Assembly (NCBI RefSeq): GCF_056712565.1
Contig: NZ_CM160072.1
Reading direction: 5' to 3' (one strand)
DNA: 64,000 bases
Below the pieces are notes generated by a model. The model was not told where the DNA came from. It made no database searches and saw only the letters and a program-made list of their open reading frames with translations. A program made the translations under genes and the position numbers. Position 1 is the first letter of the stretch. Every line of letters begins with the position of its first letter. Shown here piece after piece: positions 15,611 to 56,607 of the stretch.

Positions 15611-15687
<77 letters not shown>

Positions 15688-15729
15688 AATTTGCACCGCA
15701 AATTTGAAGAGGTTTTAACTACATGTTAT

Positions 15730-15805
15730 GGGGCTATAGCTCAGCTGGGAGAGCGCCTGCTTTGCACGCAGGAGGTCTGCGGTTCGATCCCGCATAGCTC
15801 CACCA
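15730..15805 (+). tRNA. alaV: tRNA-Ala (TGC anticodon)
   Basis: GGGGCTATAGCTCAGCTGGGAGAGC...CTCCACCA cloverleaf in the 16S-23S spacer. Confidence 0.95.
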
Positions 15806-27374: not shown

Positions 27375-27451
27375 GGAGCGGTAGTTCAGTCGGTTAGAAT
27401 ACCTGCCTGTCACGCAGGGGGTCGCGGGTTCGAGTCCCGTCCGTTCCGCCA
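27375..27451 (+). tRNA. aspV: tRNA-Asp (GTC anticodon); island-associated tRNA locus
   Basis: Exact repeat of the aspU sequence; immediately followed by an AT-rich region and the accessory island. Confidence 0.95.
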
Positions 27452-27779: not shown

Positions 27780-28565
27780 ATGAATTTAAAAAAGGTTTGT
27801 TGTATATGTGTATTATTCTCGCTGCTTGCAGGATGTGCCTCTGAATCTCCTATTGATGAAAAAAAGAAAAAAACTCAAACCACACAAATTTCTATTAATA
27901 AAAACGTTCCCCAGCAACTAACAGACAAAGATTTATATGGTAATGAAACCACACTGGCTGTATCCGAGGAGGATATTCAAGCTGCGCTTGAAGGAGATGA
28001 GTTTCGTGTGCCTCTTAATTCTCCTGTAATACTTGTTCAGTCTGGCAGTCGCGCACCGGAAACCATTATGCAGGAGGAGATGAGAAAATATTATACAGTT
28101 GCCACATTTTCTGGCATTCCTGACAGGAAAAAAACTGTAACCTGTAATAAAGACAAAAACAAAGATGAAAGCCTGGATATTGTAGATGCCGAAAATATGA
28201 ACTGGATGCAGGCATTGCGTTTTGTTGCAGCAAAAGGCCATCAGAAAGCGATTATTGTTTTCCAGGATACGTTGCAGACAGGAAAATATGACTCTGGATT
28301 GAAATCAATAGTTTGGACAGATTATAAAAATCAAAAATTGACTGACACGATGTCACTGCGTTATTTGGTTCGATTCACGTTGGTGGATGTGGCTACAGGT
28401 GAGTGGGCTACCTGGTCGCCTGTGAATTATGAATCGAAAGTGATTTTTCCGCAGATAGGGAATAAAAATTCTGACAGCCTTGATGTGGCAGAACAGCAGA
28501 TTTCACAACTTAAGCAGAAAACGTATGCAGCAGTGGTTAAAGACCTGGTGAATCGATATCAGTAG
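27780..28565 (+). CDS. yafT: Lipoprotein YafT
   Basis: 261-aa ORF with lipobox (LLAGCASE), low GC, in AT-rich DNA next to aspV. Confidence 0.75.
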
Positions 28566-28904
28566 TGAGGTTTTATACCAGACGTTTTAGTGGTACTTAG
28601 CAAGAAAGAGCATTTCTCTTTTCTATTTTACACTATGGAACAAGTCTGCTAATTAATTTTACATATGTCTTTTAGGAGTGGTAAAAACTTTCCTAAAGTT
28701 ATTTATTGTCCTCTCAACATATAAGCTGTAATTCGAGTTTTCGGTTGAACTGTCAAAAATACATCATATACATCTATAAAACAGCAGGTACGGTTAATTA
28801 AGAATTTTTATTCGTGATTAACCGTACTTTGTCATTTTATCCTATAATGTTAAATTGCCTTTTTAAAATATAACAATAATGCAGATGAAAGACTCCCTGG
28901 TAAC

Positions 28905-29384
28905 TTAGAAAATCCGTTCACTCCAAAGGCTGTATGCACTGGTTCCGGCGACGCTGTGCTCCCAATTGATGCTCTCATAGGTAAATGACACAGACTCTTC
29001 CGCCTGCCCTGGACTGTCGTTAATGGTATGGGGAACGGTAAGGCCGATGTTTGAGAGCCGGGCGTTAGCCAGTTTCAGCTTGTAGTACGGTTCATTAATT
29101 CCAAAGCGGTTGGTGCGGTAGAATACAAAATCACAGGTCAGACATTCATTCTCTGAAATGGCCTTGCCCAGCAGAGGGGAGGATTTGTCCACCGGTTTCG
29201 TGATGGTCAACTCCTGATGGTTGACATTCTGCGCACGGCTCAGACCATGGGACAGTGACGTCACCATGATCTGATCCTGATGTGCAATCTGGGCTTTGTT
29301 ACCGATGGACGGCATTGACGAGCATCCGGATGAAATCAGCCCCTGAAGTTCTCCGTTCAGTGTCAGATAGACGGGATTTGCCAT
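28905..29384 (-). CDS. hcp: Hcp-family T6SS tube protein (second hcp copy)
   Basis: 159-aa product from MANPVYLTLNGELQG... with AAGGAG RBS 8 nt upstream; Hcp-like N-terminus; the ORF-track start at 29405 is an extension. Confidence 0.8.
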   Translation of the reverse strand: MANPVYLTLNGELQGLISSGCSSMPSIGNKAQIAHQDQIMVTSLSHGLSRAQNVNHQELTITKPVDKSSPLLGKAISENECLTCDFVFYRTNRFGINEPYYKLKLANARLSNIGLTVPHTINDSPGQAEESVSFTYESINWEHSVAGTSAYSLWSERIF

Positions 29385-29401
29385 TGTTATTCTCCTTAAT
29401 C

Positions 29402-30760
29402 TCAATGAGTTGGATGGACAGGTTCGGTTCTGTTATCCGTTGCCATATCCTGTCCGGTATTTTTCAGCAGCAGCCAGCGGCTTAACAGCCCGTCCAGCCG
29501 TTCGTTGATCTCTTTTTCCAACGCCTGTGTGTCCTGCTTCTGTGTACGGGTCTCCTGGTACTGCGTCAGCAGGTACTCCAGTGGTGTTTCTTGATTCAGT
29601 AACCGTTCGGCCTGCCAGGTCACCGTTTTGATATACGATAGGGTGAAACCCTGTTTCTCCGTCTCCTTCTTCATCATCAAATCTGCAAAATCCCGCAAAT
29701 TCTGCCGCGCTTGTTGCCAGCCCTTCATCTGCGGACTGGCTTGCGCCCGGTTTCTCAGCGTGTTGCTCCACATCCTGCTGGCTTCCTGCTGTTGCAGGCT
29801 TTCCGGCCAGAGGGTGTCTGCGGTGCGCATCATCTGCATTCCGGTTTCCAGCGGCTGTAGTGGCGGGGCATTCAGAAGCTGTTGCAGGTACTGTTCATAT
29901 TCTTTCAGTACCGGGGATGCCAACCAGACGGTGGCGGCTCCCTGTGTGGTATCCCTGACCTGTGTAAGCTGCTGCTGCATCGGATACGCCTGCCACCACC
30001 AGAGTGCAGATGCGATAACGGCAGTACAGGCGGCACCGGCAACAAAACCTTTTACCGTGTCGCCCTGTTTTGCTTTGTCGGCGTTATCTGCCACACCGCG
30101 CACCCCCACCCGCATTTCCGGCAGGTCGGGTAGGGGGGGCATGGTTTCCGCTGTGGCGGAAGCCGTGCCTTCAGGCGCATAGACCAGCGTTCTGACCATG
30201 GTCTGTGCCGCCGTATCAGTACGGTTTCTGGGCTGCGGCTCAAACCGCTTGCGTGTGTTCTGCACAAAATAAAGCAGATTTTCCACGCGCGGCTGGCGCT
30301 TCAGTTCCACTTGCTGGAGTTTGTCGCAGATAAGCTGCAAAGCCCGTTCCGTGCGGTAGAGCAACGAAAGATCATTTTCGGAAAAGGAAACCTGCTGGCG
30401 CAGGATATTCCCGGTGCGGGTGTTGAACCAGTCCAGCATCTCAGTCCGCGCCGGACCACTCTGCGGCCAGAATTTATCCCATTCGTGGATGATCATCGCA
30501 GCCAGCAGTTCCGCGCCTTCACAGAACCCTGCCAGTCCCTGATTACGTGTACGTGCCAGCGTATAGTAGGTGGCGGTATGCAAATCCACCCCGTTGGCCT
30601 TAAAAATCGACAGCGCCAGCGATTCCACCAGTTTCCAGTTCAGCTCCGGCTGTGACGGGTGGTTAGCTTTGTTAATTTCTTCGCGGATGGCGCTGAACTC
30701 CGGCAGGGCGCGCGGATCGCTGCCGGTAACGATAGTTTGTGTCAGTGCGTAATTGCTCAT
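29402..30760 (-). CDS. ImpA-N-domain T6SS-associated protein (VasL/TssA-like)
   Basis: 452-aa product from MSNYALTQTIVTGSDPRALPEFSAIREEINK (ImpA N-terminal motif), predicted TM segment mid-protein; start inferred at the ATG 10 nt after the tssM stop. Confidence 0.6.
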   Translation of the reverse strand: MSNYALTQTIVTGSDPRALPEFSAIREEINKANHPSQPELNWKLVESLALSIFKANGVDLHTATYYTLARTRNQGLAGFCEGAELLAAMIIHEWDKFWPQSGPARTEMLDWFNTRTGNILRQQVSFSENDLSLLYRTERALQLICDKLQQVELKRQPRVENLLYFVQNTRKRFEPQPRNRTDTAAQTMVRTLVYAPEGTASATAETMPPLPDLPEMRVGVRGVADNADKAKQGDTVKGFVAGAACTAVIASALWWWQAYPMQQQLTQVRDTTQGAATVWLASPVLKEYEQYLQQLLNAPPLQPLETGMQMMRTADTLWPESLQQQEASRMWSNTLRNRAQASPQMKGWQQARQNLRDFADLMMKKETEKQGFTLSYIKTVTWQAERLLNQETPLEYLLTQYQETRTQKQDTQALEKEINERLDGLLSRWLLLKNTGQDMATDNRTEPVHPTH

Positions 30761-30770
30761 CACTATCCCC

Positions 30771-33700
30771 TTAATACAACGTATCCGGTAAACGGAACAG
30801 GCTGAACAGACCGCCGGTGAACGGGTTATCTTCGGTATCCACATGCACCTGGTAAACCATTGCGCCGCCGTCCACGTTAAAGCGCACGTTAAAGGTGTCA
30901 CTGGTCACATTGGTCAACTGGCCCGCGCCGAACAGGCGGAACTGCGCCCACGGTCCACTGAACGCGATACTGCGCGGTGCTCTGCCGCTGGTGCCAATCA
31001 GCGTCAGCTTGCTTTCATTGCCTTCACGCATGTTGTTCGGCCAGACCAGATGGGCGGTGTAGTTGCGTCCCTGGCTGTAGTCCACTAACTGGCCGTCCAG
31101 GTTAAGTACGCTGCGCCGCTTATTGCCGGAAAGCGATACGGTTTCCACGGCAAACTGTGCGCCCAGCCCGTTCTGCTGGCTGAAGAAGATGTCGCGGATT
31201 TTCTGCGCGGTATCCAGTTGCTGCCGGATATCTTCACGGATTAACACTCTGCCGTCGTCGCCAAAGGTCAGATCGTTTTCAAGGAACAGGCGCAGGTTGT
31301 TCTTGTAGAAATTGTCCAGAATGCCATCCGGTTTAAAGAAACGTTCAAACGAATCCAGTGAGGCATCCTGTGTGGCGCGCGGATTAAACGGATAGTTATC
31401 GGCAAGCTGCTCGTTGAAGGGTTTCACTACATTGTCGCGCCAGTCCACTTCCATGTAACGAACGGCTTCCACCATCACCACATGCCAGGCCTGATCCGCG
31501 AGCTTACCTACCCAGCGGTTAAGAGGCGCAGGCAGGGTTTTTGCCATCTGACGGGTGGCGAAGATTGGATCGCTGCTGTTTTGATCCAGCCGTAGCTGTA
31601 CTGCTTTCAGCGCCGATTTCCCCGGCACTGGCGAGTTCTGGATCGCCAGCAGGTAACGGTGCAGCTCGGTCAGTTGCTGGTACACGGCCTGTAGCGTACT
31701 CGCCTTGTCCTTTTGCTCCTCCAGTGCGCTGTTTTCCGGTGCGAACTCATGCCCCAGCCGGGATAACAGGCGGTAATCCATCTCATTTATCGCCGCTTCC
31801 CTCGCCTTATCATCCAGTTTGCCGGAGAGCGTCAGCGCGTGGGTATTATCGCGCAGCGCCGTCAGCGCACGCTGGAATGGCTGATCGCCGCTGATAATCT
31901 GCTCCAGCGCGTCGGTCAGCGCCGACATGGCCTCATAGTCACGGACGTTGAGGTTATCCATTCCGGCACGCCAGGTGGCGGTATAGTCACTGATGTACTG
32001 TTCGGTGATATGGCGCTGGATCTCTTCACGGTCGGCCTCGCTGTAGGCGACGCTTTGCGTCAGGTTCAGTACCCACGAATCCAGCGCGGTCAGCTCAACG
32101 AGGCCCTCACGCTGTTTGACAAAATAGCTTTGCAGTCCATAGCGGGTGAGGAACTGCGGGATCACCAGTTTTTCATCATTACCGGCGACGAACACGTTGT
32201 CGAAGGTGGGACCAACCTGGTCGCGCAAATTCAAATCGGCGGGCAACACGCTTAATGCTTTGGTGCGCAGGGTCTGGTAGACACGCTGGTATATGGGCAG
32301 CTTGCTCAGTTCCTGCTGCGCATTAATGATCGGTTTATCATAGGGGGTCCAGCGGCTGACAGCATCGCTGTCGCTGCTTTGGCGCTGCGCGTGCCAGTCG
32401 GTGTGCTCCAGCGCATAGTCCAGATGCACCATCAGTTGCGCCTGAATATCGCGCTGGCCGTGAAATTCATTGCTCCAGCGCCGTGCCATGTACTGTTTTA
32501 CCGCCTCGTTGTTGCGCCCACTTTTGTCTTCCATCATGCGCACTACGCGCAGCACAGCGAGCTTTTCTTCGCTCTCTGGCGGGGCAATGTTTAGATCCCG
32601 GATCAGGCCGTTCATTAACGAGGGGAGATAACGCTGCTCAAGAAGCTGAATGTAGGTTTGCTCCACATACGGCCCTACGCGGGCGCCCTGGTACAATCCC
32701 ATATCCGCCAGAAAACCGTGATCGCGATAATCACCATAGGCCAGGGTGGCATCGCGTACCGGGTTAAGCAATGGCAATTGCAGATTGCCGAATTCATCCG
32801 TTCCCTGCGGTGGTGGTACGTCCATAAAGGCTTTAGCTTGTGCCAGTACGTTAACGCCAGACTGCCAGTTCTGATTGTAATAATGGTGCCAGCTTCCGAC
32901 CATCAATGCCGCCAGTGCCGCGCCACAGGTGGAAAAGGCGGTCAGCCTGCGCCGGGAGCTGTTCAGCCAGACGCTGTTTTCACCCGCCAGGTTCGGCTCA
33001 GCCAGCAGGACTTCCGGGAAGAGGCGGCGAGTAAAATACGGCGTCGTCTCCACCAGAGGCCAGGTTGCCAGCGAGCTGTTACCCAGTCCGTACTGGCGGG
33101 CGGCGGACTGCGTGAAAATATCATCCACCTGGCCACGCTGTAGCGAGGATGTGAGCCAGACGCCACGCAGCATTACATCCATGTTCTCACCGTCCAGCAA
33201 TGCGGCGAGCAGTGCGGTGACGATTTCTCCTGTTCCCTGCATCTGACGGGAGAAGCTGAACACAGCGCTGCGGGGAGCAGCACCGGTTTGTGCGAGCACC
33301 AGATCCGACAGCGCCAGGTTCACCTGTTGTACCCACGTCTGCCAGAAAGCCCCCAGTTCGCTGCGCCAGCCGTCACTTTCATGGGCGCGGCGGGTAAATG
33401 TGACGCCGAGGATCGCATCGCGGTCTTTTTTATCCAGTGAATGGAACAGCGCGGCAAAGCCGTTCAGCAGATCCAGCCGTGTCAGCACCACGTAAACGGG
33501 CAGACGGCAGTGCAGGCTCTGACGGATCTCCTGAAGTTGCTGGCGCAAATTTTGTACCAGTGTCTCACGGCGGGATTTATCCGCCGTCAGCAGATCGGGA
33601 AGATCGAGCGTCAGGATAAGACCGTTGAGCGGCTGGCGAGCGCGCGTTTGCATCAGCCAGCCCAGCCAGTGTTCGCGCAGGCGGCGGCGGAGCAGATCAT

Positions 33701-34298
33701 CCCCGCCGGGAGTGGTCAGTACGCCGTCAACATCGAAAATTACCGCCTGGTTGCCCACTCGCGGTGTGATCAGCGGGTGGTATTCCACACCCCGGATGCT
33801 TTCCGGCGTGTAAACAATGTCAGACGGAAAGCCCTCGCGCAGCAGCGTGCTTTTGCCGCTACCCGCAGGACCAATGACCATATACCACGGCAACTGCCAC
33901 AGATAACGGCGGTTATCCAGATGGCGGCGCAGGCGCAGCAGCCAGTGATCCAGATATTGCTGCTGGCGGTGGAGTTCCACGGTCAACGGATCTTTTTCTT
34001 CCTCCCGCTGCTGTTTCTGCTGTTTTTCCAGCTTTTGCAGACGCTTCATCACCCGCCAGGTGAGCCAGACCAGAGCGATAAGTCCCCAGACGGCGGTCGC
34101 CAGCCAGCGGTTTGCCAGCGGAGCCAGCCAGTGCTGCTCATAGAGCGTCCATTTTGGACCCTGCCACCAGATCCACACCAGCAGAAAAATCCATGCCAGC
34201 GTCAGTAGCCAGGTGGCGGAAACTTTAAACCGCGGCATCGCTGGCCTGAGCGCAGATTTCAACGTGCTGAACAGTCGGGATGTGGGAAATTTGAACAC
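30771..34298 (-). CDS. tssM: T6SS membrane-complex protein TssM (IcmF)
   Basis: 1175-aa ORF with N-terminal TM segments and Walker A motif (GPAGSGKST), IcmF-like architecture. Confidence 0.9.
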   Translation of the reverse strand: MFKFPTSRLFSTLKSALRPAMPRFKVSATWLLTLAWIFLLVWIWWQGPKWTLYEQHWLAPLANRWLATAVWGLIALVWLTWRVMKRLQKLEKQQKQQREEEKDPLTVELHRQQQYLDHWLLRLRRHLDNRRYLWQLPWYMVIGPAGSGKSTLLREGFPSDIVYTPESIRGVEYHPLITPRVGNQAVIFDVDGVLTTPGGDDLLRRRLREHWLGWLMQTRARQPLNGLILTLDLPDLLTADKSRRETLVQNLRQQLQEIRQSLHCRLPVYVVLTRLDLLNGFAALFHSLDKKDRDAILGVTFTRRAHESDGWRSELGAFWQTWVQQVNLALSDLVLAQTGAAPRSAVFSFSRQMQGTGEIVTALLAALLDGENMDVMLRGVWLTSSLQRGQVDDIFTQSAARQYGLGNSSLATWPLVETTPYFTRRLFPEVLLAEPNLAGENSVWLNSSRRRLTAFSTCGAALAALMVGSWHHYYNQNWQSGVNVLAQAKAFMDVPPPQGTDEFGNLQLPLLNPVRDATLAYGDYRDHGFLADMGLYQGARVGPYVEQTYIQLLEQRYLPSLMNGLIRDLNIAPPESEEKLAVLRVVRMMEDKSGRNNEAVKQYMARRWSNEFHGQRDIQAQLMVHLDYALEHTDWHAQRQSSDSDAVSRWTPYDKPIINAQQELSKLPIYQRVYQTLRTKALSVLPADLNLRDQVGPTFDNVFVAGNDEKLVIPQFLTRYGLQSYFVKQREGLVELTALDSWVLNLTQSVAYSEADREEIQRHITEQYISDYTATWRAGMDNLNVRDYEAMSALTDALEQIISGDQPFQRALTALRDNTHALTLSGKLDDKAREAAINEMDYRLLSRLGHEFAPENSALEEQKDKASTLQAVYQQLTELHRYLLAIQNSPVPGKSALKAVQLRLDQNSSDPIFATRQMAKTLPAPLNRWVGKLADQAWHVVMVEAVRYMEVDWRDNVVKPFNEQLADNYPFNPRATQDASLDSFERFFKPDGILDNFYKNNLRLFLENDLTFGDDGRVLIREDIRQQLDTAQKIRDIFFSQQNGLGAQFAVETVSLSGNKRRSVLNLDGQLVDYSQGRNYTAHLVWPNNMREGNESKLTLIGTSGRAPRSIAFSGPWAQFRLFGAGQLTNVTSDTFNVRFNVDGGAMVYQVHVDTEDNPFTGGLFSLFRLPDTLY

Positions 34299-34317: not shown

Positions 34318-35760
34318 TTACTGTTCTGCCGTGAGTTTTTGTTCCAGTGCTTTCAGCAGGGAAGGCTCCCATTCGGATAGCATCATGTGTAATCCTGTTC
34401 TGAAGAGCATCCGGTACTGCTGTTGTGCAAGCTGAACCATACCGGCCTCTTCCAGTAACTGCGCGCCGAAAAACTGGCGGTGAAACTGGTGGCGGGGATC
34501 ACCTTCGGGCAGGTTTTCCAGGTACCGCAGCGCGGCTTCCAGCCCGTTTTCATCGAAGCACGCCTTGGCCGCCTGTAATTCTTCATCGGTCTGTACAACC
34601 GGGACGGTCTGGTTGACTGAGCCGGATGATGCCAGCCACTGTTTCGTCTGTTCGGACACAAACGGAGTGCGGTCGTTAAACAACAGGTTGATCAGTGCGG
34701 GCAGGCGGGCCAGAAAATCGGTAACTTCATCACGGATAGCATCCGCCACCTGTTTATAACCGAGGCGCAGCGCGGTCTGTGCTGAGAGGTAATGACCGTC
34801 CAGCCAGTACGGGGCCAGCAGCAGGCTTTTTTCCACCTGCTGCCACAGCGCCATGTCGGCATTGTTCAGCCGCGCCAGGTAATCATCCATCATATCGACA
34901 GGGAAGGCTGCCAGTGGGGGCCGGCCATCGCTTTCTGCCTGCGGGGTACTGGTGATGGTTTGCCACAGCGCATGGCGGCGCAGTCGGTAACCCTGCGGTG
35001 ACTCCGGCTGGCGCTCACAGAGAATGGCGGCCACCTTTAGCAGGGTGTCGCGCCATGCTTTATCGTCGTGGTTTTCAACGGTGACCTGCGGGATTGGAGT
35101 GGCTGCAACAGGAGGCTGAGCGGCAACCGTGTGCGGTGACATATCCGGTACATATCCGGTCGTGGCCTGCGGCGCAATGGCGGCGCTTCGTGCAGATGAT
35201 GTCATTTCAGGCGCTACATCACGAAACGCGCGCTGAAACAGGGAAAATAAATCGTCTGTCGCCTTTGCCAGCTCAGACGCGTTGTGCGCCTGCCAGCACT
35301 GTGCCAGTTTTGCCAGCTCTCCCAGCAAAGCATCGCGCTGTATTGTCGCAGCATTCCCGGCAAAGTCCTGAACGGCAGACTCAAAGCGTTTTATCACCTG
35401 GGCGGCAAAGCGTTTTTTGTGGGCCATGTTCTGCGGTGCGGCGCATGTCCAGTAGTGCTCTGTATATTGTGCCAGCATCCTGGAGGCCAGCAGAATATCA
35501 CCGGCATGTTGCAGGGTACGCAGCAAGTGGGCCAGCAGGCGAAAATCTTTGGTTTCTGAGGCCAGAAGCATCAGGCCCCGGCGCTGAAGTTCCGGGATAT
35601 CAAGCTGGCTGTGCGCCAGTGAACCGAGCTTGACGATTTCGCTGTCGACAAACTCCCAGTCTGCATTGCCATCATCAAGCGCGGCGGACAGCTTATCTTC
35701 TGGCAGGTTTTCCAGCAGGTGTGCAAGCCATACATCGGGATTACGTAAGTCCATTGCCAT
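34318..35760 (-). CDS. tssA: T6SS protein TssA (ImpA family)
   Basis: 480-aa product from MAMDLRNPDVWLAHLLENLPEDKLS; start set at the ATG 5 nt after the upstream gene stop. Confidence 0.8.
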   Translation of the reverse strand: MAMDLRNPDVWLAHLLENLPEDKLSAALDDGNADWEFVDSEIVKLGSLAHSQLDIPELQRRGLMLLASETKDFRLLAHLLRTLQHAGDILLASRMLAQYTEHYWTCAAPQNMAHKKRFAAQVIKRFESAVQDFAGNAATIQRDALLGELAKLAQCWQAHNASELAKATDDLFSLFQRAFRDVAPEMTSSARSAAIAPQATTGYVPDMSPHTVAAQPPVAATPIPQVTVENHDDKAWRDTLLKVAAILCERQPESPQGYRLRRHALWQTITSTPQAESDGRPPLAAFPVDMMDDYLARLNNADMALWQQVEKSLLLAPYWLDGHYLSAQTALRLGYKQVADAIRDEVTDFLARLPALINLLFNDRTPFVSEQTKQWLASSGSVNQTVPVVQTDEELQAAKACFDENGLEAALRYLENLPEGDPRHQFHRQFFGAQLLEEAGMVQLAQQQYRMLFRTGLHMMLSEWEPSLLKALEQKLTAEQ

Positions 35761-48507: not shown

Positions 48508-49212
48508 AAAAATGTTCCCGTTCAGGCCATGAGCACAGCATTTTCGTACTGCATACAAATACCGACAATACCGTTTCAGTGGCAGTTAGATAATGTAACC
48601 TTCCTTCTGTTGTGATCGGTATTCTACTCATGAAATAAAACATTAAAAGAACTATTTATATTTTTGAAAGAGATGTATCCTTCATTATTAATACATAAGA
48701 GTTAAATCAATTTGGTATTTATAGACTTAGTGAATATGATTTTACGGCTAATAAAGTTACATAATGCATTGATTTATATGTGTTTATTAAGTTGATTAAT
48801 AAGTTTTATGTATGGTTTTATAAATAAATTAATTAATTGCTAGAAATACATCATAAGAAATTCCTTTAAGGAATATCTTAATTGCGTGCCGGAACGATTG
48901 TGAAGTAAGTGTTGTAATGATTGATTTTTGAAGAAATTGTAGGTTTTTATGGGGGTAAGGATACGTTATGGATAATTCTACTGTTGATGTTGATATATTT
49001 TTAGCTTATGTAATCGTGTTCTGAAATTGACTAAAAATATATTTAAACACCATAAAAGAGTTTTTCGGTAGGTGCTAATTACGTGTGCCTGTAACTCGAA
49101 TAAAGAAAAGGGTGTGGTTCCTGATGTGAGCCGCATCACACTCTAACCTGTCGGGGATTAACGACGGGTTGTTCGTAAAACAGCAGTTGATAATTTCACA
49201 AGGAGTTCATAA
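48508..49212. promoter_or_regulatory. AT-rich divergent control region between tssB (minus) and hcp (plus)
   Basis: ~700 bp of strongly AT-rich non-coding DNA between the two divergent T6SS transcription units. Confidence 0.5.
49125..49140. promoter_or_regulatory. Candidate CRP-type binding site upstream of hcp
   Basis: TGTGA-GCCGCA-TCACA: both pentameric half-sites with 6-bp spacer, centred ~80 bp upstream of the hcp ATG. Confidence 0.3.
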
Positions 49213-49731
49213 ATGCCAACCCCATGTTACATTTCAATTACAGGTCAGACCCAGGGGAACATCACTGCCGGTGCTTTCACCGCAGATTCTGTCGGCAATA
49301 TCTACGTGCAGGGACACGAAGATGAAATGCTGGTGCAGGAGTTTCTGCATAACGTTACTGTTCCAACCGATCCGCAGTCTGGTCAGCCTTCCGGGCAGCG
49401 TGCTCACAAACCGTTCATTTTCACCGTGGCGCTGAACAAAGCCGTTCCGCTGCTGTACAACGCGCTGGCCTCCGGTGAAATGCTGCCGAAAGTGGAGCTG
49501 CACTGGTGGCGTACCTCTGTTGAAGGCAAGCAGGAGCACTACTTCACCACACGTCTTACTGACGCGACGATTGTGGACATGAACCTGCATATGCCGCACT
49601 GCCAGGACCCTGCACAGCGTGAGTTTACGCAATTGCTCGCAGTATCACTGGCCTACCGTAAGGTTGAGTGGGAGCACATCAAATCCGGTACTTCTGGTGC
49701 CGATGACTGGCGTGCACCGCTGGAAGCATAA
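49213..49731 (+). CDS. hcp: T6SS tube protein Hcp (TssD)
   Basis: 172-aa ORF, Hcp-like, preceded by AAGGAG RBS. Confidence 0.9.
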   Translation: MPTPCYISITGQTQGNITAGAFTADSVGNIYVQGHEDEMLVQEFLHNVTVPTDPQSGQPSGQRAHKPFIFTVALNKAVPLLYNALASGEMLPKVELHWWRTSVEGKQEHYFTTRLTDATIVDMNLHMPHCQDPAQREFTQLLAVSLAYRKVEWEHIKSGTSGADDWRAPLEA

Positions 49732-49951: not shown

Positions 49952-51934
49952 ATGTCCTTAAAAGGTCTTCGCTTTACGCTGGAGGTTGACGGCCAGGAGC
50001 CGGACACCTTTGCAGTGGTGAATTTCCGGTTAATCCAGAACCAGTCTTATCCGTTTGTGATGAGTGTGGATGTCGCCAGCGATTCTTTTATGCAGACGGC
50101 GGAGATGCTGCTGGAGAAGAACGCAACGCTGACTATCTGGCAGGGTGTCATCCCGCTGCGTTATGTCACCGGCGTGGTGGCGGGCTTTGGCATGCAGGAG
50201 AACAACGGCTGGCAGATGCGTTATCACCTGCGTATTGAGCCGCCGTTATGGCGGTGCGGGCTGCGGCGGAACTTCCGTATCTTCCAGCAGCAGGATATCC
50301 GGACGATATCGGCCACATTACTGAACGAGAACGGCGTCACAGAGTGGACGCCGCTGTTTTATGAGGACCATCCGGCGCGGGAGTTCTGTGTGCAGTACGG
50401 GGAGTCGGACCTGGCGTTTCTGGCGCGGCTGTGGGCGGAGGAGGGGATTTTCTTCTTTGAGCGGTTTGCGGCGGACAGTCCGGAGCAGAAGCTGACGCTG
50501 TGCGACGATGTGGCGGGGCTGTCACAGGCGGGGGAGCTTCCGTTTAACCCGGACACATCGGCAGGAGCGGAGACGGAGTGTGTCAGTATGTTCCGTTATG
50601 AGGCGCATGTCCGCCCGTCATCGGTGCAGAGCCAGGATTACACGTTTAAGGTGCCGGACTGGCCGGGGATGTATGAGCAGCAGGGTGAGAGCCTGAACGG
50701 ACAGCTTGAACAGTATGAAATATTTGATTATCCGGGAAGGTACAAGGATGAACAGCACGGCAAGGATTTCACGCTGTACCGGATGGAGAGCCTGCGCAGT
50801 GATGCGGAAAAGGCCACAGGGCAGAGTAATTCGCCGAAGCTGTGGCCGGGGACGTGGTTTACGCTGACGGGGCATCCGCAGAAGATGCTGAACCGTGAAT
50901 GGCAGGTGGTACAGAGCATTCTGTCAGGAGACCAGCCGCAGGCGCTTCACGGCAGCCAGGGGAGAGGAACCACGCTGGGAAATCAGTTAGAGGTGATACC
51001 GGCGGACCGGACGTGGCGTCCACGGCTGCAAAGCAAACCGAAGGTGGACGGGCCACAGAGCGCCATTGTCACCGGGCCTGCGGGAGAGGAAATCTTCTGT
51101 GATGAACATGGCCGGGTACGGGTGAAGTTTCACTGGGACCGTTATCACGGGATGACGGAGGAGAGTTCGTGCTGGGTGCGTGTGTCGCAGGCGTGGGCGG
51201 GGCCGGGATTTGGTAATCTGGCGATACCGCGGGTGGGCCAGGAGGTGATTGTTGATTTTCTGAACGGGGACCCGGACCAGCCGCTGGTCATGGGCCGGAC
51301 GTACCATGAGGACAACCGTTCGCCGGGGAGCCTGCCGGGGACGAAGACGCAGATGACGATACGGTCGAAGACCTATAAAGGAAGCGGCTTTAATGAACTG
51401 CGGTTTGAAGACGCCACGGGCGGTGAACAGGTCTATATCCACGCGCAGAAGAACATGGATACGGAGGTGCTGAATAATCGGACGACGGATGTGAAGGCTG
51501 ACCACACGGAGACCATTGGTAACGACCAGAAGATAACGGTGGGGTTGGGCCAGACGGTGAATGTGGGGAGCAAAAAGGAAGGTGGTCATGACCAGAAAGT
51601 GACGGTAGCGAACGATCAGCATCTCACGATAAAAAATGACCGGCACAAGGTTGTAAATAACAACCAGACAAGCAAGGTGACGGGAACTGATACCGAAGAA
51701 GTCGTCAAAAAACAGAGTATTAAAATAGGTGATAATTACGAACTGAAAGTTGAGCATGGTACAAATATCATATCTGGGGACAGTATTGAGCTAATTTGTG
51801 GGCAGGGAGAGAGCGGGACTTGTTCCATAAAACTGGAGAAAACAGGAAAGATAATAATACGGGGGACGGAGTTTCTATTTGAGGCTACCGGTCCTGTAGA
51901 TATTAAAGGAAAAGATATTCATCTGAACGGATAG
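49952..51934 (+). CDS. vgrG: T6SS spike protein VgrG (TssI)
   Basis: 660-aa ORF with gp27/gp5-like core; no long C-terminal effector extension; GGGAGG RBS. Confidence 0.9.
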   Translation: MSLKGLRFTLEVDGQEPDTFAVVNFRLIQNQSYPFVMSVDVASDSFMQTAEMLLEKNATLTIWQGVIPLRYVTGVVAGFGMQENNGWQMRYHLRIEPPLWRCGLRRNFRIFQQQDIRTISATLLNENGVTEWTPLFYEDHPAREFCVQYGESDLAFLARLWAEEGIFFFERFAADSPEQKLTLCDDVAGLSQAGELPFNPDTSAGAETECVSMFRYEAHVRPSSVQSQDYTFKVPDWPGMYEQQGESLNGQLEQYEIFDYPGRYKDEQHGKDFTLYRMESLRSDAEKATGQSNSPKLWPGTWFTLTGHPQKMLNREWQVVQSILSGDQPQALHGSQGRGTTLGNQLEVIPADRTWRPRLQSKPKVDGPQSAIVTGPAGEEIFCDEHGRVRVKFHWDRYHGMTEESSCWVRVSQAWAGPGFGNLAIPRVGQEVIVDFLNGDPDQPLVMGRTYHEDNRSPGSLPGTKTQMTIRSKTYKGSGFNELRFEDATGGEQVYIHAQKNMDTEVLNNRTTDVKADHTETIGNDQKITVGLGQTVNVGSKKEGGHDQKVTVANDQHLTIKNDRHKVVNNNQTSKVTGTDTEEVVKKQSIKIGDNYELKVEHGTNIISGDSIELICGQGESGTCSIKLEKTGKIIIRGTEFLFEATGPVDIKGKDIHLNG

Positions 51935-52040: not shown

Positions 52041-53087
52041 ATGATAGAAATGAAAAATAACACGCCATTTCCTTTGTTGTCATTTGAAAAATATGGTCGT
52101 TATGGTCTTTTGTTTGATGTTATTGCTATTAAAATGTCATTGCGAATTAAAAATGGATTTTATGCTGATCTTGCTGAGTTTCAAAAAGAATTGTCCATGT
52201 CTGATGAATACTATGGGGAGTCTGAAACAAGTAGTCTAAAATCTGAAACAGACTTAGTTCTTTGTAAAAGAAATACAGATATTCACGTGACAGGTAGTGC
52301 TCATGCCCCTTCAGGGGATAAGTCTCAGTGGAAGGCTTGTGTGAGGGTTAATAGTTTTTCTAAAGAACTGAGTTTATCTGGTGTCCGCTACTTACAATAT
52401 GAGCGAAATCGTTGGCAGATGAGCTTACCAGATAAAATTATTAATGTTCCTCTACGCTATGAGCTTGCTTACGGTGGTATTTGGCAACCAGATGGTATGG
52501 AGAAATTGGTTTTTTCAGCAAACCCTGTAGGTTGTGGATATTATCCTGATATTTCTCAACTTAATACAAGTTGTCAATATAAACTCCCACAAATAACCAG
52601 CTCTGCTTTGTCAGAAAACGCTACCATTTTTAATGGGGAATCTGACTTTTTTCAAGGTGTTGGCCCTGTATCTCGATGGTGGAAAAGTCGCCTCCAGTAT
52701 GCAGGAACCTACAATGAAGTATGGCGTGAAAAGCGCTATCCCTATTTGCCGGATGATTTTGATGAGCGGTTCTACAATAGTGCTCATCCGGATATGATAT
52801 ACACGGGGTTTCTCTCTGGCGATGAAAACATCTCTCTTGAAGGTTTTTTTAAATTTGAACAGGTTGTTAAGACAAAATTGCCAGGTATACGACCTGTACT
52901 TATATTAAAAACCAAGCATAATACATCACATATGTTCTTACCTGTTGCGGATACAATGGTTATCGATTTAAGTCGACAGGAAATATACCTTACCTGGAGA
53001 TTAACAATACCTGATTTTTTTGGAATGAAAGAAGGAGTGCTGAGTTGTATTATTCCTGAATGTATAGGGAAAAAATATTATGGGTAA
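52041..53087 (+). CDS. Putative DUF2169-family T6SS adaptor protein
   Basis: 348-aa low-GC ORF directly between vgrG and a DUF4150/PAAR-like effector, the canonical adaptor position; assignment by context and size. Confidence 0.55.
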   Translation: MIEMKNNTPFPLLSFEKYGRYGLLFDVIAIKMSLRIKNGFYADLAEFQKELSMSDEYYGESETSSLKSETDLVLCKRNTDIHVTGSAHAPSGDKSQWKACVRVNSFSKELSLSGVRYLQYERNRWQMSLPDKIINVPLRYELAYGGIWQPDGMEKLVFSANPVGCGYYPDISQLNTSCQYKLPQITSSALSENATIFNGESDFFQGVGPVSRWWKSRLQYAGTYNEVWREKRYPYLPDDFDERFYNSAHPDMIYTGFLSGDENISLEGFFKFEQVVKTKLPGIRPVLILKTKHNTSHMFLPVADTMVIDLSRQEIYLTWRLTIPDFFGMKEGVLSCIIPECIGKKYYG

Positions 53088-54519
53088 CTATCATATCGGG
53101 GATGGTGAATGTAGATTTAGAGTCGTGTGTTCTTCACCAGATGTATGTGAAGTAGGAGGTTACAAGGTTCCTTTTGACAGTTACCAGACTTTAGATAGTG
53201 AAAGACAGTACAGTTCAACGGTATGGGCGCGTGGATGCAGAGCTTTAAATGTTGGTTCAGTGATTGCTGGAACTCAAAGTAATGCCGGTAAAGGTGTCAT
53301 ATCCGGTACATCTCAAGGAACGGGTGACTGTGTTATTTTAACGGGAAGTCCGACTGTAACAATAGAAGGGAAACCTGTTGCTTATCATGGTTCAGTTGTT
53401 GGGATTAATAACCACAACTGCCTTGGTAAATTGTATACCAAAATAAAATCACCAATGATTTCTGTCATTGATAGAACTTTTAATTATGAAAGGACTGCTG
53501 AAGTAATACACGATTTACTGCTTCTGAAGGATCTCCTCTCTGTTGGTAATATTTTTGACGGAGATATTTCACCTGAGGTTAAAAATGATTTATTTCAAAT
53601 AAAAGATCCTGACCAATCATGGGGGGAGTTTTTTTCAATAAAGAATATCAGAGAATCTCTCAGGAATGGTATTGAAGGAGATAAATCTCAGATCAGAGAA
53701 TGGTTTGGAGAGAACACACTTACTCAAATGGGGAATGGAGCAATCACCACTTTACATGGTGTGGCGGATTTAGCCTTAGTTACATTCGATGCTCTGTTAG
53801 ATACGGCAACGGCAACGGTTGCTTGCCCGATAGGCGAAGATGGGTTATGTGAACAGGCAAATATAAATTTAAATGAAAAAGAACAGGCTTTATTTAATAT
53901 TAGTAATTCATTGATAAATGGGCAAGCATGGGATGCACTTAAAAAAATGATAATGGATACAAATAATGGTGATCAGATTGCTCTGGTGCATTTTGCCAGC
54001 TTTTTATGGGGCTTTATGATACCCGCAAAAATACCAGAAGAAAATATCTCTGGGAAAGTATTTGTAGAGCCAGTAGTTTTAGAAGGTGGTGCTGGTGGCA
54101 ATTGGACAGTATTTGATGAGGTTTTAGATTCAAATGTAATAAAGCAATTGACTTTAACAGGCTGTGGAGCGGCCTGTGGGGAAATGTTGCTTAGGGATAG
54201 GTATATTTTTGTCACGCAAAATGTAATTGGAACAGAATTAACATCTATGACGTCGCTGGCAAACAAGCTTAATAAATTTGATGTCGGCTGGGAAGGGAAT
54301 GCAGTGAGCGAATCTAGTTTATATGCCCTCAGTAATACTGGTTCATGGGGAGCAATGATGTGGGATTCTGGAAGTAAAGTAGGGCATTGGGTACTTGTTA
54401 AGGGTGTTGATGATGCTGGGAATGTGATAATATATGATCCATATCAAGGGAGTCGATATCTGATGACTGAACAGGAATTTAAGGAGGTATGGAATGGGCA
54501 TAGTGTTTACAAACCATAA
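53080..54519 (+). CDS. DUF4150/PAAR-like T6SS effector with C-terminal papain-like cysteine-peptidase toxin domain
   Basis: 479-aa ORF; N-terminus carries DUF4150 motifs (SPDVCEVGG, SGTSQGTGD, GSPTVTIEGKPVAYHGS...NNHN); C-terminal ~130 aa has a Cys/His/Asp arrangement (GCGAACGEM ... GHWVLVKG ... IYDP); start overlaps the upstream gene by 8 nt. Confidence 0.75.
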   Translation: MGNYHIGDGECRFRVVCSSPDVCEVGGYKVPFDSYQTLDSERQYSSTVWARGCRALNVGSVIAGTQSNAGKGVISGTSQGTGDCVILTGSPTVTIEGKPVAYHGSVVGINNHNCLGKLYTKIKSPMISVIDRTFNYERTAEVIHDLLLLKDLLSVGNIFDGDISPEVKNDLFQIKDPDQSWGEFFSIKNIRESLRNGIEGDKSQIREWFGENTLTQMGNGAITTLHGVADLALVTFDALLDTATATVACPIGEDGLCEQANINLNEKEQALFNISNSLINGQAWDALKKMIMDTNNGDQIALVHFASFLWGFMIPAKIPEENISGKVFVEPVVLEGGAGGNWTVFDEVLDSNVIKQLTLTGCGAACGEMLLRDRYIFVTQNVIGTELTSMTSLANKLNKFDVGWEGNAVSESSLYALSNTGSWGAMMWDSGSKVGHWVLVKGVDDAGNVIIYDPYQGSRYLMTEQEFKEVWNGHSVYKP

Positions 54520-54784
54520 TATTGATTTGTTATCGGTTGAATTTGATGAGATTACAAAAAATTGTAATTACACTTTTAGTGTAGATGGAGAGACGGCTAT
54601 CTTTACTGCTAGAATATCAATAATAAGAAATATAAAGGGAATTAAATATAGCGAAGAACTTGATAAATTTATAATGTCAATAATGCCATTGCAGCCTAAA
54701 GTATCAAAAATTTTGGGAGGTGTTACTTGGGATTGTATTTGTGGTAAGGAAGTTGGATTTCCTGTGAGATTAATTGGTAAGTGA
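54494..54784 (+). CDS. Putative cognate immunity protein
   Basis: 96-aa ORF overlapping the effector 3' end by 26 nt, same strand, low GC; no signal peptide. Confidence 0.5.
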   Translation: MGIVFTNHNIDLLSVEFDEITKNCNYTFSVDGETAIFTARISIIRNIKGIKYSEELDKFIMSIMPLQPKVSKILGGVTWDCICGKEVGFPVRLIGK

Positions 54785-55041
54785 AGGGTGGTGAGGTATT
54801 TCTATATTTTTTTCGTGAAAGTCTTTAAAACTGAAATTATCTTGTTGGGAGCCCAAGGTGAGATCATAAAACGTATTATTTTATAAATATTGTTATGCAG
54901 GGAAAGGTCAAGTAATGCTGCTTTTTTGTACTAAATAATTCGCATTTTATGTTCAATAATTGAGGTGTTCCTTATTACCTAAAGCTGTTTTTCATTGCTT
55001 ATACATGATCAAATACTCATTGCCTAATTAAGGGGGACAAA

Positions 55042-55920
55042 ATGGAACTTAAAAAATTGATGGAACATATTTCTATTATTCCCGATTACAGGCAAGCCTG
55101 GAAAGTGGAACATAAATTGCCAGATATTCTATCTGTTAACTATTTGCGCCGTTATTTCTGGTGCATAATGCTGGGAAGATATAGAGGATTTGGGGAAACA
55201 CATCTCGATTTTTTGAAGTGATATGGTGATTTTGAAAATGGTATTCCTGTTCACGATATCATTGCCAGAGTTGTATCCTGTATCAGTCCTGCAAAATTTC
55301 ATGAGTGCTTTATTAACTGGATGCGTGACTGCCATTCCTCAGATGATAAAGATGTCATTGCAATTGATGGAAAAACGCTTCGGCACTCTTATGACAAGAG
55401 TCGCCGCAAGGGAGCGATTTATGTCATTAAAATCCGTCTTCATATTATTTGCGATGTCCCTGATGAACTTATTGATTTCACGTTTGAATGGAAAGAGCTG
55501 AAGAAATTATGCATGGCAGTCTCCTTTCGTTCAATAATAACAGAACAAAAGAAAGAGCCAGAAATGACGGACAGATATTATAGCATTTCTGCTGATTTAA
55601 CCGCAGAGAAGTTCGCCACAGCGAACCGAAATCACTGGTACGTGGAGAATAAGCTGCACTGGCATCTGGACGTGGTAATGAATAAAGACGACTGCAAAAT
55701 AAGAAGAGGAAATGCAGCAGAATTATTTTCAGGGATACGGAAGATCGCTATTAATATTTTAACGAAAGATAAGATACTCAAGGCAGGGGCAAGATGTAAG
55801 ATGTGAAAAGCAGCTGCGGACAGAGACTACCTCGCGTCAGTCCTTGCGGGGGCGGGCTTTCGTATTCTTGCTCTGCAAGGGATGATAAAAAGTGCAACTT
55901 TATTCCACGCAGCTATTTAG
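55042..55920 (+). mobile_element. Decayed ISAs1-family (H-repeat-associated) transposase remnant
   Basis: Fragments in several frames match an H-repeat/ISAs1 transposase: [26 protein letters not shown]..., [12 protein letters not shown]...[40 protein letters not shown], then C-terminal [21 protein letters not shown]...[31 protein letters not shown]; frameshifts plus an internal deletion of ~150 codons. Confidence 0.7.
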
Positions 55921-56034
55921 ACAGCGTACAGTAAACAAACGAAAGTTGTTATTTCAATGGTCAGGGCAAGAGCATGAAGTGTTTACTACACACTATGCTC
56001 TTGTCCTGGAGTCAGGTCTTGTTTGGAGGGATAA

Positions 56035-56538
56035 ATGGTAGATATTGTCGAGGCCGATAAAACGGATATTTATTTCATTCAGGAGAGTGTTTATGGCAAA
56101 ATCGGGTTGCCAGCTTTTGGTAATACAATAGGACCATCCGCACAGCAAGTTGTTAAAAAGGTATTCGCTGTCGTTAAAGAACGAGATAAGACACATGCAA
56201 AACAGAGATTATTGTTGGAATATAATGGTAACAAACTCTGGATGAATGCTATTGATGGCAGTGAAGCTATCCTACCAACAGAATTTTCTAAGCGATACGA
56301 ACTTTCATTATTCAATACTACTAATTTTGGAGAAGATCCTTTTCCTGATGTTAATTTATATAATAATATGAAATCAAGTTTTTTTGTAAGGTTTGGTGGA
56401 ACATCCCATCCCGAGGCTTGGGCTATTTATAATGCAAGTACGAAAGAGGTTAAATATATAGAAACTGCAAGAGAAATTGATAAAATATTCAGTGATTTTA
56501 ACTTGAGTGGTACATTGCCAATTCACATTGGTCAATGA
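56035..56538 (+). CDS. Hypothetical protein (orphan, low GC)
   Basis: 167-aa ORF with GGAGGG RBS, no signal peptide, AT-rich codon usage; no motif recognised. Confidence 0.5.
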   Translation: MVDIVEADKTDIYFIQESVYGKIGLPAFGNTIGPSAQQVVKKVFAVVKERDKTHAKQRLLLEYNGNKLWMNAIDGSEAILPTEFSKRYELSLFNTTNFGEDPFPDVNLYNNMKSSFFVRFGGTSHPEAWAIYNASTKEVKYIETAREIDKIFSDFNLSGTLPIHIGQ

Positions 56539-56607
56539 TTTTTTAAATTGTGTGATTAAATAATTGAACATTAATGATGATTTATAGCATCATTATTATT
56601 CTATAAC

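Follow-up and report, generated by a model that had tools for sequence, protein, structure and literature searches.

A TagA/VasL gene and a short-loop Hcp, probably a minor cargo carrier, at the end of the main T6SS2 operon of Escherichia coli

The window that we analysed, a stretch of 64,000 nucleotides (RefSeq assembly GCF_056712565.1, contig NZ_CM160072.1), belongs to an E. coli B2/ExPEC chromosome, and the T6SS that it carries is that of the aspV island, called "T6SS2" in APEC and NMEC. The stretch with tagA and hcp2A is 100% identical to those of APEC O1, ATCC 11775 and ExPEC XM; for the last of these, which is the strain of Ma 2018, the 100% identity extends over 28560-30960. These two genes are the final ones of the minus-strand operon that runs from tssB to hcp. 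The gene order in the cluster is vasI-tssA-tssM-vasL; in V. cholerae, the locus tags VCA0118, VCA0119 and VCA0121, which are consecutive, imply the same order. Another hcp gene, hcp2B, opens the divergent hcp-vgrG-DUF2169-xmtU operon. The preliminary description of the region had placed an hcp next to vgrG, and there is indeed one at 49213-49731 on the plus strand. The features on which the argument relies are the following.

28776..28827, minus strand: terminator-like hairpin with an 11-bp stem (GUACGGUUAAU/AUUAACCGUAC), then CUGCUGUUUUAU, about 80 nt past the hcp2A stop
28905..29384 (stop included), minus strand: hcp2A, a 159-aa short-loop Hcp/TssD paralogue and the final gene of the main T6SS operon
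29392..29397, minus strand: Shine-Dalgarno AAGGAG of hcp2A, 7 nt before the ATG, read from the sequence
29402..30760, minus strand: tagA/vasL (TsmA, class B TssA-like), 452 aa, with ImpA_N, a hydrophobic segment and VasL
29465..29899, minus strand: VasL domain of TagA (residues 288-432; PF12486, 87.2 bits, 1.4e-24, cut-off 27.3)
29987..30058, minus strand: putative membrane segment of TagA (residues 235-258, GFVAGAACTAVIASALWWWQAY; Kyte-Doolittle 1.58 over 19 aa)
30422..30727, minus strand: ImpA_N domain of TagA (residues 12-113; PF06812, 71.6 bits, 8e-20, cut-off 26.9)
30771..34238, minus strand: tssM, directly upstream of tagA, with Pfam IcmF-related domains and named tssM in RefSeq; start position taken from the APEC O1 annotation
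34318..35760, minus strand: tssA (class A, ImpA_N and VasJ; T6SS_VasJ 1.4e-72; TIGR03362 444.6 bits, cut-off 230.1)
49213..49731, plus strand: hcp2B, 172 aa, canonical Hcp (T6SS_HCP 1.5e-32)
49952-51934, plus strand: vgrG, adjoining hcp2B

The first of the two terminal genes, tagA, starts with the ATG at 30760, 10 nt after the tssM stop, and ends with the stop at 29404-29402 on the minus strand. RefSeq names its product a "VasL domain-containing protein", and the VasL match covers profile positions 1-146 of 147. The protein that precedes hcp2A is thus, as first described, an ImpA_N protein of 452 aa with a predicted transmembrane segment, although the score of this segment (1.58) is borderline for a putative transmembrane helix. 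The segment is kept in seven TagA orthologues, including those of E. coli O157, E50, Hafnia, Salmonella, Citrobacter and Buttiauxella, where it scores 1.66-2.01 and is followed by a WWW motif. The AF2 model of TagA has low overall confidence (pLDDT 63, pTM 0.41); it contains a helical N-terminal domain at residues ~20-173 (pLDDT mostly 75-90) and a helical VasL domain (pLDDT 55-85). Across the family, dN/dS values of 0.13-0.19 indicate purifying selection on tagA.

Published work separates class A, which is TssA with a VasJ C-terminus, from class B, which is TagA/VasL with a membrane anchor (PMC6745524). The protein studied here has the N-terminal ImpA_N in common with the class A protein (TssA, TsaC) but lacks the VasJ C-terminus of the latter (no match to PF16989 in the profile search) and has a putative membrane segment. 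Its match to TIGR03362, the TssA equivalog, reaches 85.7 bits, below the cut-off of 230.1, and is confined to residues 11-211. The preliminary description had held it to be distinct from tssA, which is borne out: it carries VasL and not VasJ, and a separate tssA lies at 34318-35760. The proposed alignment of the two ImpA-domain proteins gave nothing, since pairwise BLASTP of TagA and the TssA of the cluster finds no significant similarity and the ImpA_N that they have in common is visible to profiles only. Because this N-terminal domain is all that profiles find in common and BLASTP finds no similarity, the two are not recent paralogues. Hence, the suggestion of two sub-functionalised pairs of paralogues stands in part: both pairs are functionally distinct, but the ImpA_N pair is no recent duplication. 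That the protein is a further copy of TssA, serving to prime the assembly of the sheath, an idea that the common ImpA_N and the weak matches to TssA equivalog models could bring to mind, is hardly credible, being contradicted by the missing VasJ, the short and sub-threshold TIGR03362 match, the lack of BLASTP similarity and the presence of the VasL domain and hydrophobic segment that define TagA.

By its domain architecture and position, the 452-aa protein is assigned to TagA/VasL (TsmA, class B). [quoted passage not shown] EAEC Sci-1 TagA and V. cholerae VCA0121 combine ImpA_N, a hydrophobic segment and VasL (PF12486), as T6SS2 TagA does, and VCA0121 comes directly after tssM/vasK, like tagA in T6SS2. 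Domain architecture and gene position alone make up this likeness; EAEC and V. cholerae TagA are only 19.3% identical to each other (PMC6745524). By analogy with these two proteins, the ImpA_N domain of T6SS2 TagA would bind the TssA cap, the hydrophobic segment would tether the protein to the inner membrane, and TagA would stop and hold the sheath.

The second terminal gene, hcp2A, follows the tagA stop after a gap of 17 nt; its ATG is at 29384 and its stop at 28907-28905 on the minus strand. A 159-aa Hcp with its own strong ribosome-binding site had been reported at the end of the operon, and both the coordinates and the AAGGAG motif 7 nt before the ATG are confirmed. Longer ORFs with TTG or GTG starts (166 aa for hcp2A and 499 aa for tagA) were considered and rejected, as RefSeq and all orthologues start MANPVYL / MSN. 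Had the ORF failed to match Hcp profiles, the first reading would have fallen. It matches them far above chance and curated cut-offs: 78.5 bits and 7.2e-22 for Pfam T6SS_HCP (PF05638, cut-off 23.5), and 200.3 bits and 1.8e-59 for TIGR03344 (cut-off 58.9), with family matches that span the full length of the protein. The AF2 model (pLDDT 75.7) has the Hcp beta-barrel fold, with Foldseek TM-scores of 0.79 to 6A2V, 0.76 to 3HE1 and 0.77 to 5MXN. Foldseek returned 69 matches at E <= 0.001, and among the matches listed all are Hcps except 4KSR, an Hcp-fusion chimera. The gene is also encoded inside a T6SS cluster, at the end of the tssB-to-tssM-tagA operon.

Hcp2A is maintained by selection. Among the matches listed, all full-length Hcp2A-type homologues of Enterobacterales with at least 69% identity have 159 aa, the entries of any other length being fragments or wrongly called ORFs, and the orthologues vary little (70-80% identity). 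The dN/dS amounts to 0.045 within E. coli; for comparisons between genera without synonymous saturation it is 0.07-0.13. Such low values point to purifying selection and rule out a decaying relic. The protein is presumably made in vivo, since infected ducks raise antibodies to Hcp2A (PMC5874247).

The two Hcps of the system differ markedly. The pairwise alignment called for in the preliminary description shows 28% identity and a 9-residue gap in Hcp2A at the L2,3 loop (Vs2). The gap is of 10-12 residues relative to 3HE1 and 6A2V, and the 9-residue deletion is fixed in all Hcp2A orthologues. Hcp2A thus lacks the extended L2,3 loop that marks canonical tube-forming Hcps and that is a reported requirement for ring stacking and secretion. 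Ma 2018 found that Hcp2A has Vs1 only, that removal of Vs2 stops the secretion of Hcp1 or Hcp2B and that deletion of Vs1 has no effect, and left the function of Hcp2A open (PMC5874247). Compared with V. cholerae Hcp and P. aeruginosa Hcp3, Hcp2A has the same fold (TM 0.76-0.79) and family profile, but their L2,3 loop is about 9-12 residues longer. V. cholerae Hcp, which was solved inside the sheath-tube complex (5MXN/5OJQ), matches Hcp2B with 289 bits over the full length and Hcp2A with 68.5 bits; for P. aeruginosa Hcp3 (3HE1) the scores are 225 and 82.2 bits. By its sequence, Hcp2B, which is closely related to the tube Hcp of V. cholerae, is the predicted main (bulk) tube subunit. In experiments, inactivation of Hcp2B or VgrG2 abolishes XmtU delivery (PMC5874247). 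In PCN033, killing is driven by the Hcp2B-type gene, and no killing effect was reported for deletion of the terminal-type hcp1.

Published names for these genes need care. The primers Hcp2A-F/R of Ma 2018 correspond to the first and last codons of the 159-aa ORF; this is therefore the same gene, the type IIa Hcp of APEC TW-XM (PMC5874247), with no sequence difference. The Hcp2B primers of that study map to hcp2B at 49213-49731. By its primers, "Hcp1" of the papers on the RS218 lineage maps to tssB (48004-48507); the gene names of Zhou et al. 2012 (RS218) were mapped via primers in two later papers stating that they follow Zhou. "Hcp2" and "Hcp2a" (AE17 papers) map by primers to the 172-aa Hcp2B. 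The larger literature on "Hcp1", "Hcp2" and "Hcp2a" of this cluster hence concerns tssB or the vgrG-linked Hcp2B, and its results are not transferable between names. Hcp2A, which is the genuine second Hcp here, has been the subject of essentially one paper, widespread though this ExPEC/APEC system is.

Downstream of hcp2A, the window has a 339-bp non-coding spacer with 30% GC, followed by the convergent yafT. The terminator-like hairpin in this spacer is AT-rich and folds with -19.6 kcal/mol (z = -4.2 against shuffles); a scan with a consensus for terminators of the G+C-rich type found nothing and missed it. Remnants of effector or immunity genes were sought in the spacer by blastn against 11 related loci and by tblastn with nine downstream proteins of relatives, and neither search found any; the spacer matched only its counterpart in another E. 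coli. The mark of an "hcp island", i.e. effector/immunity genes directly 3' of hcp, is thus absent from the window.

The relatives present another picture. Effector/immunity-like genes lie directly 3' of the Hcp2A orthologue in 8 of the 12 lineages sampled, and in those eight the co-directional downstream ORFs begin about 30 nt past the orthologue. Hafnia, Citrobacter and Enterobacter soli have a glucosaminidase of 287 aa and a small ORF of 111-114 aa in this position, Salmonella indica and Buttiauxella unrelated proteins of 254-302 aa, and E. coli O157:H7 an LprI-like ORF; DUF1240 arrays are also found there. The downstream proteins of different genera are mutually unrelated. Pfam recognises only the Glucosaminidase and a weak LprI match among them, and their alignment, with one invariant column, reveals no common N-terminal targeting domain. 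In Buttiauxella and an E. bugandensis-like contig, hcp and the cargo genes lie between tssM and vasL. In both cases, hcp is thus linked to the cargo genes rather than to vasL. Adjacent cargo is lacking in the window, in the E. coli class with 93% identity, in Kluyvera and in a Klebsiella-like contig, where hcp2A is nevertheless strongly conserved. Hcp2A is conserved whereas the downstream genes are unrelated, and we see no co-diversification with the putative cargo.

Two precedents bear on this pattern. Cargo-linked Hcps are known from the "hcp island" of Pantoea (PMC9796082) and minor Hcps that recognise effectors from Bacteroidales (PMC13213661). As in both systems, variable effector/immunity-like genes follow Hcp2A orthologues. 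Yet, the island is empty in this window, and in the modules of Bacteroidales the Hcp co-segregates with its cargo, whereas Hcp2A is constant while the cargo varies. The likeness of Hcp2A to island-type cargo carriers is therefore one of "works like", not of membership.

Taken as a whole, we think it probable, with some reserve, that the terminal genes encode TagA/VasL and, in Hcp2A, a conserved minor cargo-carrier Hcp beside the bulk Hcp2B. The carrier role, to which comparative gene context points, is the most likely one for Hcp2A. The bulk of the tube would be built of Hcp2B, and Hcp2A rings would most likely enter it in small numbers, carrying lumen-bound cargo effectors that in relatives would be encoded, with their immunity genes, directly 3' of hcp2A. 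In this strain the slot is empty, and Hcp2A may be an orphan carrier or may serve cargo encoded elsewhere. The earlier proposal of an Hcp with the function of an effector chaperone is accordingly plausible for Hcp2A given eight of the 12 lineages, but has no cargo gene to support it here. The conservation of hcp2A without adjacent cargo agrees with a core structural role no less than with that of a carrier.

One such role would be that of an alternative or redundant bulk subunit, with Hcp2A forming homotypic tubes in certain conditions or co-polymerising freely with Hcp2B and having no cargo-specific function. In favour of it, both profile and fold mark Hcp2A as a true Hcp, and the gene is co-transcribed with structural genes (17-nt gap, own ribosome-binding site), is conserved where adjacent cargo is absent and is expressed in vivo, as the duck antibodies attest. 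Yet, Hcp2A does not replace Hcp2B for XmtU delivery (PMC5874247), is without the L2,3 loop, removal of which stops secretion of Hcp1/Hcp2B, is far more distant than Hcp2B from the V. cholerae tube Hcp, and deletion of its PCN033 homologue brought no reported killing defect. We regard this role as unlikely, if still deserving attention.

Less probable still, and in our view rather doubtful, is a role of Hcp2A with TagA at a tube end, as a conserved single ring that binds on one side, either as initiator on VgrG or as terminator beneath the TssA/TagA cap. The fixed length of 159 aa, the place in the core operon beside tagA in most lineages and purifying selection without adjacent cargo agree with it, and without the stacking loop a ring could have a single binding face. 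However, Buttiauxella and the E. bugandensis-like contig have hcp apart from vasL and together with cargo genes, and the PCN033 deletion speaks against this role as well. We also know of no tube terminator in any T6SS, which counts against it. If this reading were true, Hcp2A would be no bulk subunit and more than a carrier, and no tube-end protein of a T6SS would have been described before it.

Several papers report host-cell effects of Hcps from this cluster, and "Hcp1", "Hcp2" and "Hcp2a" of APEC and NMEC have been claimed to act against the host as secreted effectors. For Hcp2A itself such a role is very improbable: the published primers of these papers correspond to other genes, those for "Hcp2a" amplifying Hcp2B, and recombinant Hcp2A does not inhibit phagocytosis by macrophages (PMC5874247).

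As a finding, the identification of tagA and hcp2A is correct but ordinary. They are already-described parts of the T6SS2 of E. coli, both are annotated in RefSeq and their families have been described, so that little is added. In a reading milder than that of a tube end, this T6SS subtype of Enterobacterales may have a fixed "minor Hcp" docking module for interchangeable and unrelated putative cargo effectors. Since the 159-aa Hcp is conserved and the genes after it change, searching downstream of it is a simple way of looking for new T6SS effectors in Enterobacterales, and Hcp2A would provide a tractable system for understanding how a loop-less Hcp is used.

The terminal genes examined here belong to the aspV-associated type VI secretion island, the T6SS2 of the APEC/NMEC literature. 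Its minus-strand run reads, as one series, tssB, tssC, tssE, tssF, tssG, tagH, tssJ, tssK, tssL, tssH, vasI, tssA, tssM, tagA and hcp2A, and faces a divergent operon carrying a second hcp gene.

Features of the T6SS2 island and its edges
27375-27451: tRNA-Asp gene, with dnaQ, just before the T6SS region
27780-28565, plus: yafT lipoprotein gene (lipobox LLAGC), convergent with hcp2A
28905-29384, minus: hcp2A, 159-aa Hcp
29402-30760, minus: tagA (vasL), 452-aa protein
34318-35760, minus: tssA
48004-48507, minus: tssB/VipA, first gene of the minus-strand run (Pfam T6SS_VipA, 1.3e-44)
49213-49731, plus: hcp2B, 172-aa Hcp, divergent operon
49952-51934, plus: vgrG, divergent operon
52041-53087, plus: DUF2169 adaptor, downstream of vgrG, divergent operon
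53080-54519, plus: PAAR-like and peptidase C39 toxin, XmtU of Ma et al. 2018, divergent operon
55321-55806: DDE transposase fragment, beyond the XmtU gene
56608-57120: DUF2859 ORF, between the transposase fragment and yafV
57391-58170: yafV (CN_hydrolase)

The window is E. coli chromosomal DNA, and the 2.4 kb around hcp2A and tagA match ATCC 11775, APEC O1, ExPEC XM and numerous other B2/ExPEC genomes of this species at 100% identity. Despite this identity at 28560-30960, the window and APEC O1 (locus L001) are not identical over the whole cluster, since their coordinates shift by 3 nt within 39274-40040, somewhere from the 3' end of tssL to tssK. The upstream rrn operon has a tRNA-Ile/tRNA-Ala spacer in the window (15611-15805), for which the APEC O1 annotation gives tRNA-Glu. 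The intergenic region between tssB and hcp2B (48559-49212, 654 bp, 30.6% GC) presumably holds the promoters of both operons. H-NS is reported to repress the cluster (Ma et al. 2018, PMC5874247) and CpxR to control the hcp2B side only (PMC6534853). The island end at 52041-57120 resembles a patchwork of cargo genes and remnants of mobile elements. The DUF2169 and XmtU genes lie in a low-GC stretch (37-38% GC) with strong positive GC skew.

The preliminary description had placed both terminal ORFs exactly. On the minus strand, hcp2A runs from an ATG at 29384 to a stop at 28905-28907 and has its own RBS (AAGGAG, 7 nt 5' of the ATG), while tagA starts with an ATG at 30760, 10 nt past the tssM stop. 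RefSeq names them 'Hcp family type VI secretion system effector' and 'VasL domain-containing protein'. Longer TTG/GTG starts in a mechanical ORF list were rejected, as neither this annotation nor orthologue lengths support them. The gap from the tagA stop to the hcp2A ATG is 17 nt, and the genes lie in different frames, with 20 nt between the last tagA sense codon and the hcp ATG. Some E. coli database proteins (P0121-P0123, P0126, P0134, P0135) have 539-618 aa and ImpA_N, VasL and Hcp domains, i.e. tagA fused to hcp2A; their probable source is a single-base indel or an assembly error, not a natural fusion.

The 159-aa ORF, proposed to be an Hcp, matches Hcp profiles far over their cut-offs (PF05638, 78.5 bits; TIGR03344, 200.3 bits), and an AlphaFold model made from 35 sequences fits solved Hcp structures with a TM of about 0.76-0.79. 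A lack of Hcp profile matches had been set as the refuting outcome and is clearly contradicted. The ORF is exactly the hcp2A of APEC TW-XM named by Ma et al. 2018, whose cloning primers are its first and last 22 bases; the genome of that strain has the same sequence here. That study (PMC5874247) classed Hcp2A apart as Hcp type IIa, with only the Vs1 variable loop, and found no function for it. The proposed pairwise alignment gives 28% identity between Hcp2A and Hcp2B. Compared with the V. cholerae Hcp solved in the sheath-tube complex, Hcp2B scores 289 bits over its full length, against 68.5 bits for Hcp2A. In Hcp2A, loop L2,3 is shorter by 9 residues, and engineered deletion of this loop blocks secretion of Hcp1 and Hcp2B (PMC5874247). 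The shortened loop is fixed: among the homologues listed, which reach down to 69% identity, every full-length one has 159 aa. Their genera include Salmonella, Citrobacter, Enterobacter, Hafnia, Buttiauxella and Kluyvera, and the few off-length entries are fragments or mis-called ORFs. Values of dN/dS (0.045 within E. coli, 0.07-0.13 between genera) indicate purifying selection. Delivery of the XmtU toxin needs Hcp2B and VgrG2 (PMC5874247), and in PCN033 bacterial killing is driven by the Hcp2B-type gene, deletion of the terminal-type hcp having no reported killing effect. Hence, Hcp2B is the main tube protein and Hcp2A a conserved minor paralogue.

Among 5426 complete E. coli genomes, the 2.4-kb stretch is matched in 766 and an hcp2A-type gene occurs in 1009, including diverged alleles (67-73% nucleotide identity, e.g. 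O157:H7). It is always chromosomal and in single copy.

We compared the neighbourhood of hcp2A in 12 lineages. An orthologue lies within the same cluster type in all of them, directly 3' of vasL in ten, and in eight a co-directional ORF begins about 30 nt past it. The downstream proteins of different lineages are not related to one another.

Genes downstream of hcp2A orthologues
Hafnia, Citrobacter, Enterobacter soli: 287-aa glucosaminidase (peptidoglycan hydrolase domain) and a 111-114-aa ORF
Salmonella indica: unrelated 254-302-aa proteins and small ORFs
Buttiauxella: 291-aa protein, then three or four DUF1240 genes
E. bugandensis-like contig: 60-aa ORF and one DUF1240 gene
O157:H7: 72-, 197- and 148-aa ORFs, the 148-aa one LprI-like
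Strain E50: 98-aa ORF

The stretch between tssM and vasL holds hcp together with the genes 3' of it in Buttiauxella and the E. bugandensis-like contig; the constant partner of hcp is therefore the variable genes and not vasL. In Enterobacter soli (L014, 6198-7022), the hcp-glucosaminidase-immunity trio is followed by another glucosaminidase ORF, shorter at 156 aa and paired with a 115-aa partner. The pair resembles an effector-immunity cassette that was orphaned or displaced, which would be expected if cassettes replace one another in the slot. In the window the slot is empty. Between the hcp2A stop and convergent yafT lies a 339-bp spacer (30% GC), whose terminator-like hairpin folds at -19.6 kcal/mol (z = -4.2). 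No traces of the relatives' downstream genes were found in this spacer. The slot is also empty in a second E. coli lineage, Kluyvera and a Klebsiella-like contig.

A convergent yafT at the end of the same cluster type is also seen in Hafnia, Buttiauxella, Kluyvera and Enterobacter (L002 9831-10616; L008 11508-12269; L013 4623-5384; L014 7250-8092; L016 6523-7293). The copies of Hafnia and Buttiauxella, the two that were compared, share 64-68% identity with yafT of the window, although the outer flanks differ. Hence, yafT appears to move together with the island, perhaps as an accessory gene of the T6SS and not as a core-genome neighbour.

The variable slot suggests, as the best-supported reading and with moderate confidence, that Hcp2A is a minor cargo-carrier Hcp, orphaned in the window strain. 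Its rings would carry lumen-bound cargo and ride inside the Hcp2B tube. The pattern is that of an 'hcp island', as the term is used for Pantoea (PMC9796082), and it recalls the minor Hcps of Bacteroidales that recognise effectors (PMC13213661). Yet, the conservation of Hcp2A in loci lacking adjacent cargo speaks most strongly against a role as carrier alone. It keeps alive two less probable readings, Hcp2A as an alternative tube subunit and Hcp2A as a specialised tube-end ring. The preliminary description had taken the second Hcp and second ImpA_N protein as signs of sub-functionalisation, one Hcp acting for example as an effector chaperone. This was partly borne out: the chaperone idea agrees with Hcp2A as a cargo carrier and with the downstream ORFs of eight lineages, but the window's slot is empty, and the components are the known TagA/VasL and Hcp2A.

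The 452-aa protein was rightly described as distinct from TssA. It carries ImpA_N (residues 12-113) and VasL (PF12486, residues 288-432) and, between them, a hydrophobic stretch (235-258) kept in orthologues. The cluster TssA carries VasJ at its C-terminus and matches the TssA equivalog at 444.6 bits; the match of the 452-aa protein is 85.7 bits (cut-off 230.1), over its N-terminal 200 residues only, and BLASTP, run as the proposed pairwise check, finds no similarity between the two. A duplicate TssA is thus ruled out. By its published definition TagA has an ImpA_N domain, then a hydrophobic region, then VasL; it is a class B TssA-like protein for which the name TsmA was proposed, studied as EAEC TagA and V. 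cholerae VCA0121 (PMC6745524). The consecutive tags VCA0118, VCA0119 and VCA0121 imply the same order in V. cholerae as the window's vasI-tssA-tssM-vasL. Hence, by architecture and position, we assign the 452-aa protein to the TagA/VasL family. Its low-confidence AF2 model (helical N-terminal domain, disordered linker 178-245, long helix from 246, helical C-terminal domain) is consistent with this identity. The studied homologues sit at the membrane, meet the sheath at its distal end once it is fully extended, bind TssA, stop over-long, bent sheaths and retain the sheath until contraction (PMC6745524); by analogy, this TagA would cap the sheath in the same way.

Both genes were already known: they are annotated in RefSeq, their families are characterised, and earlier work had named and mutated this very hcp ORF. 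Naming in the literature is less straightforward. The 'hcp1' primers of RS218-lineage T6SS2 papers (PMC4224132, PMC9503490) amplify tssB/VipA and no Hcp; the 'Hcp2' primers of RS218-lineage papers and the 'Hcp2a' primers of AE17 papers (PMC9885592) amplify the 172-aa, vgrG-linked Hcp that Ma et al. 2018 call Hcp2B. For RS218 the mapping is indirect, from primers in later papers. It follows from these primers that most published 'Hcp' phenotypes of the T6SS2 cluster are not about the 159-aa protein. Our additions are modest, three in all: a comparison of loci that points to a fixed, loop-less Hcp with a variable cargo slot behind it, the emptiness of that slot in the window strain, and a clean-up of Hcp gene names in the T6SS2 literature.
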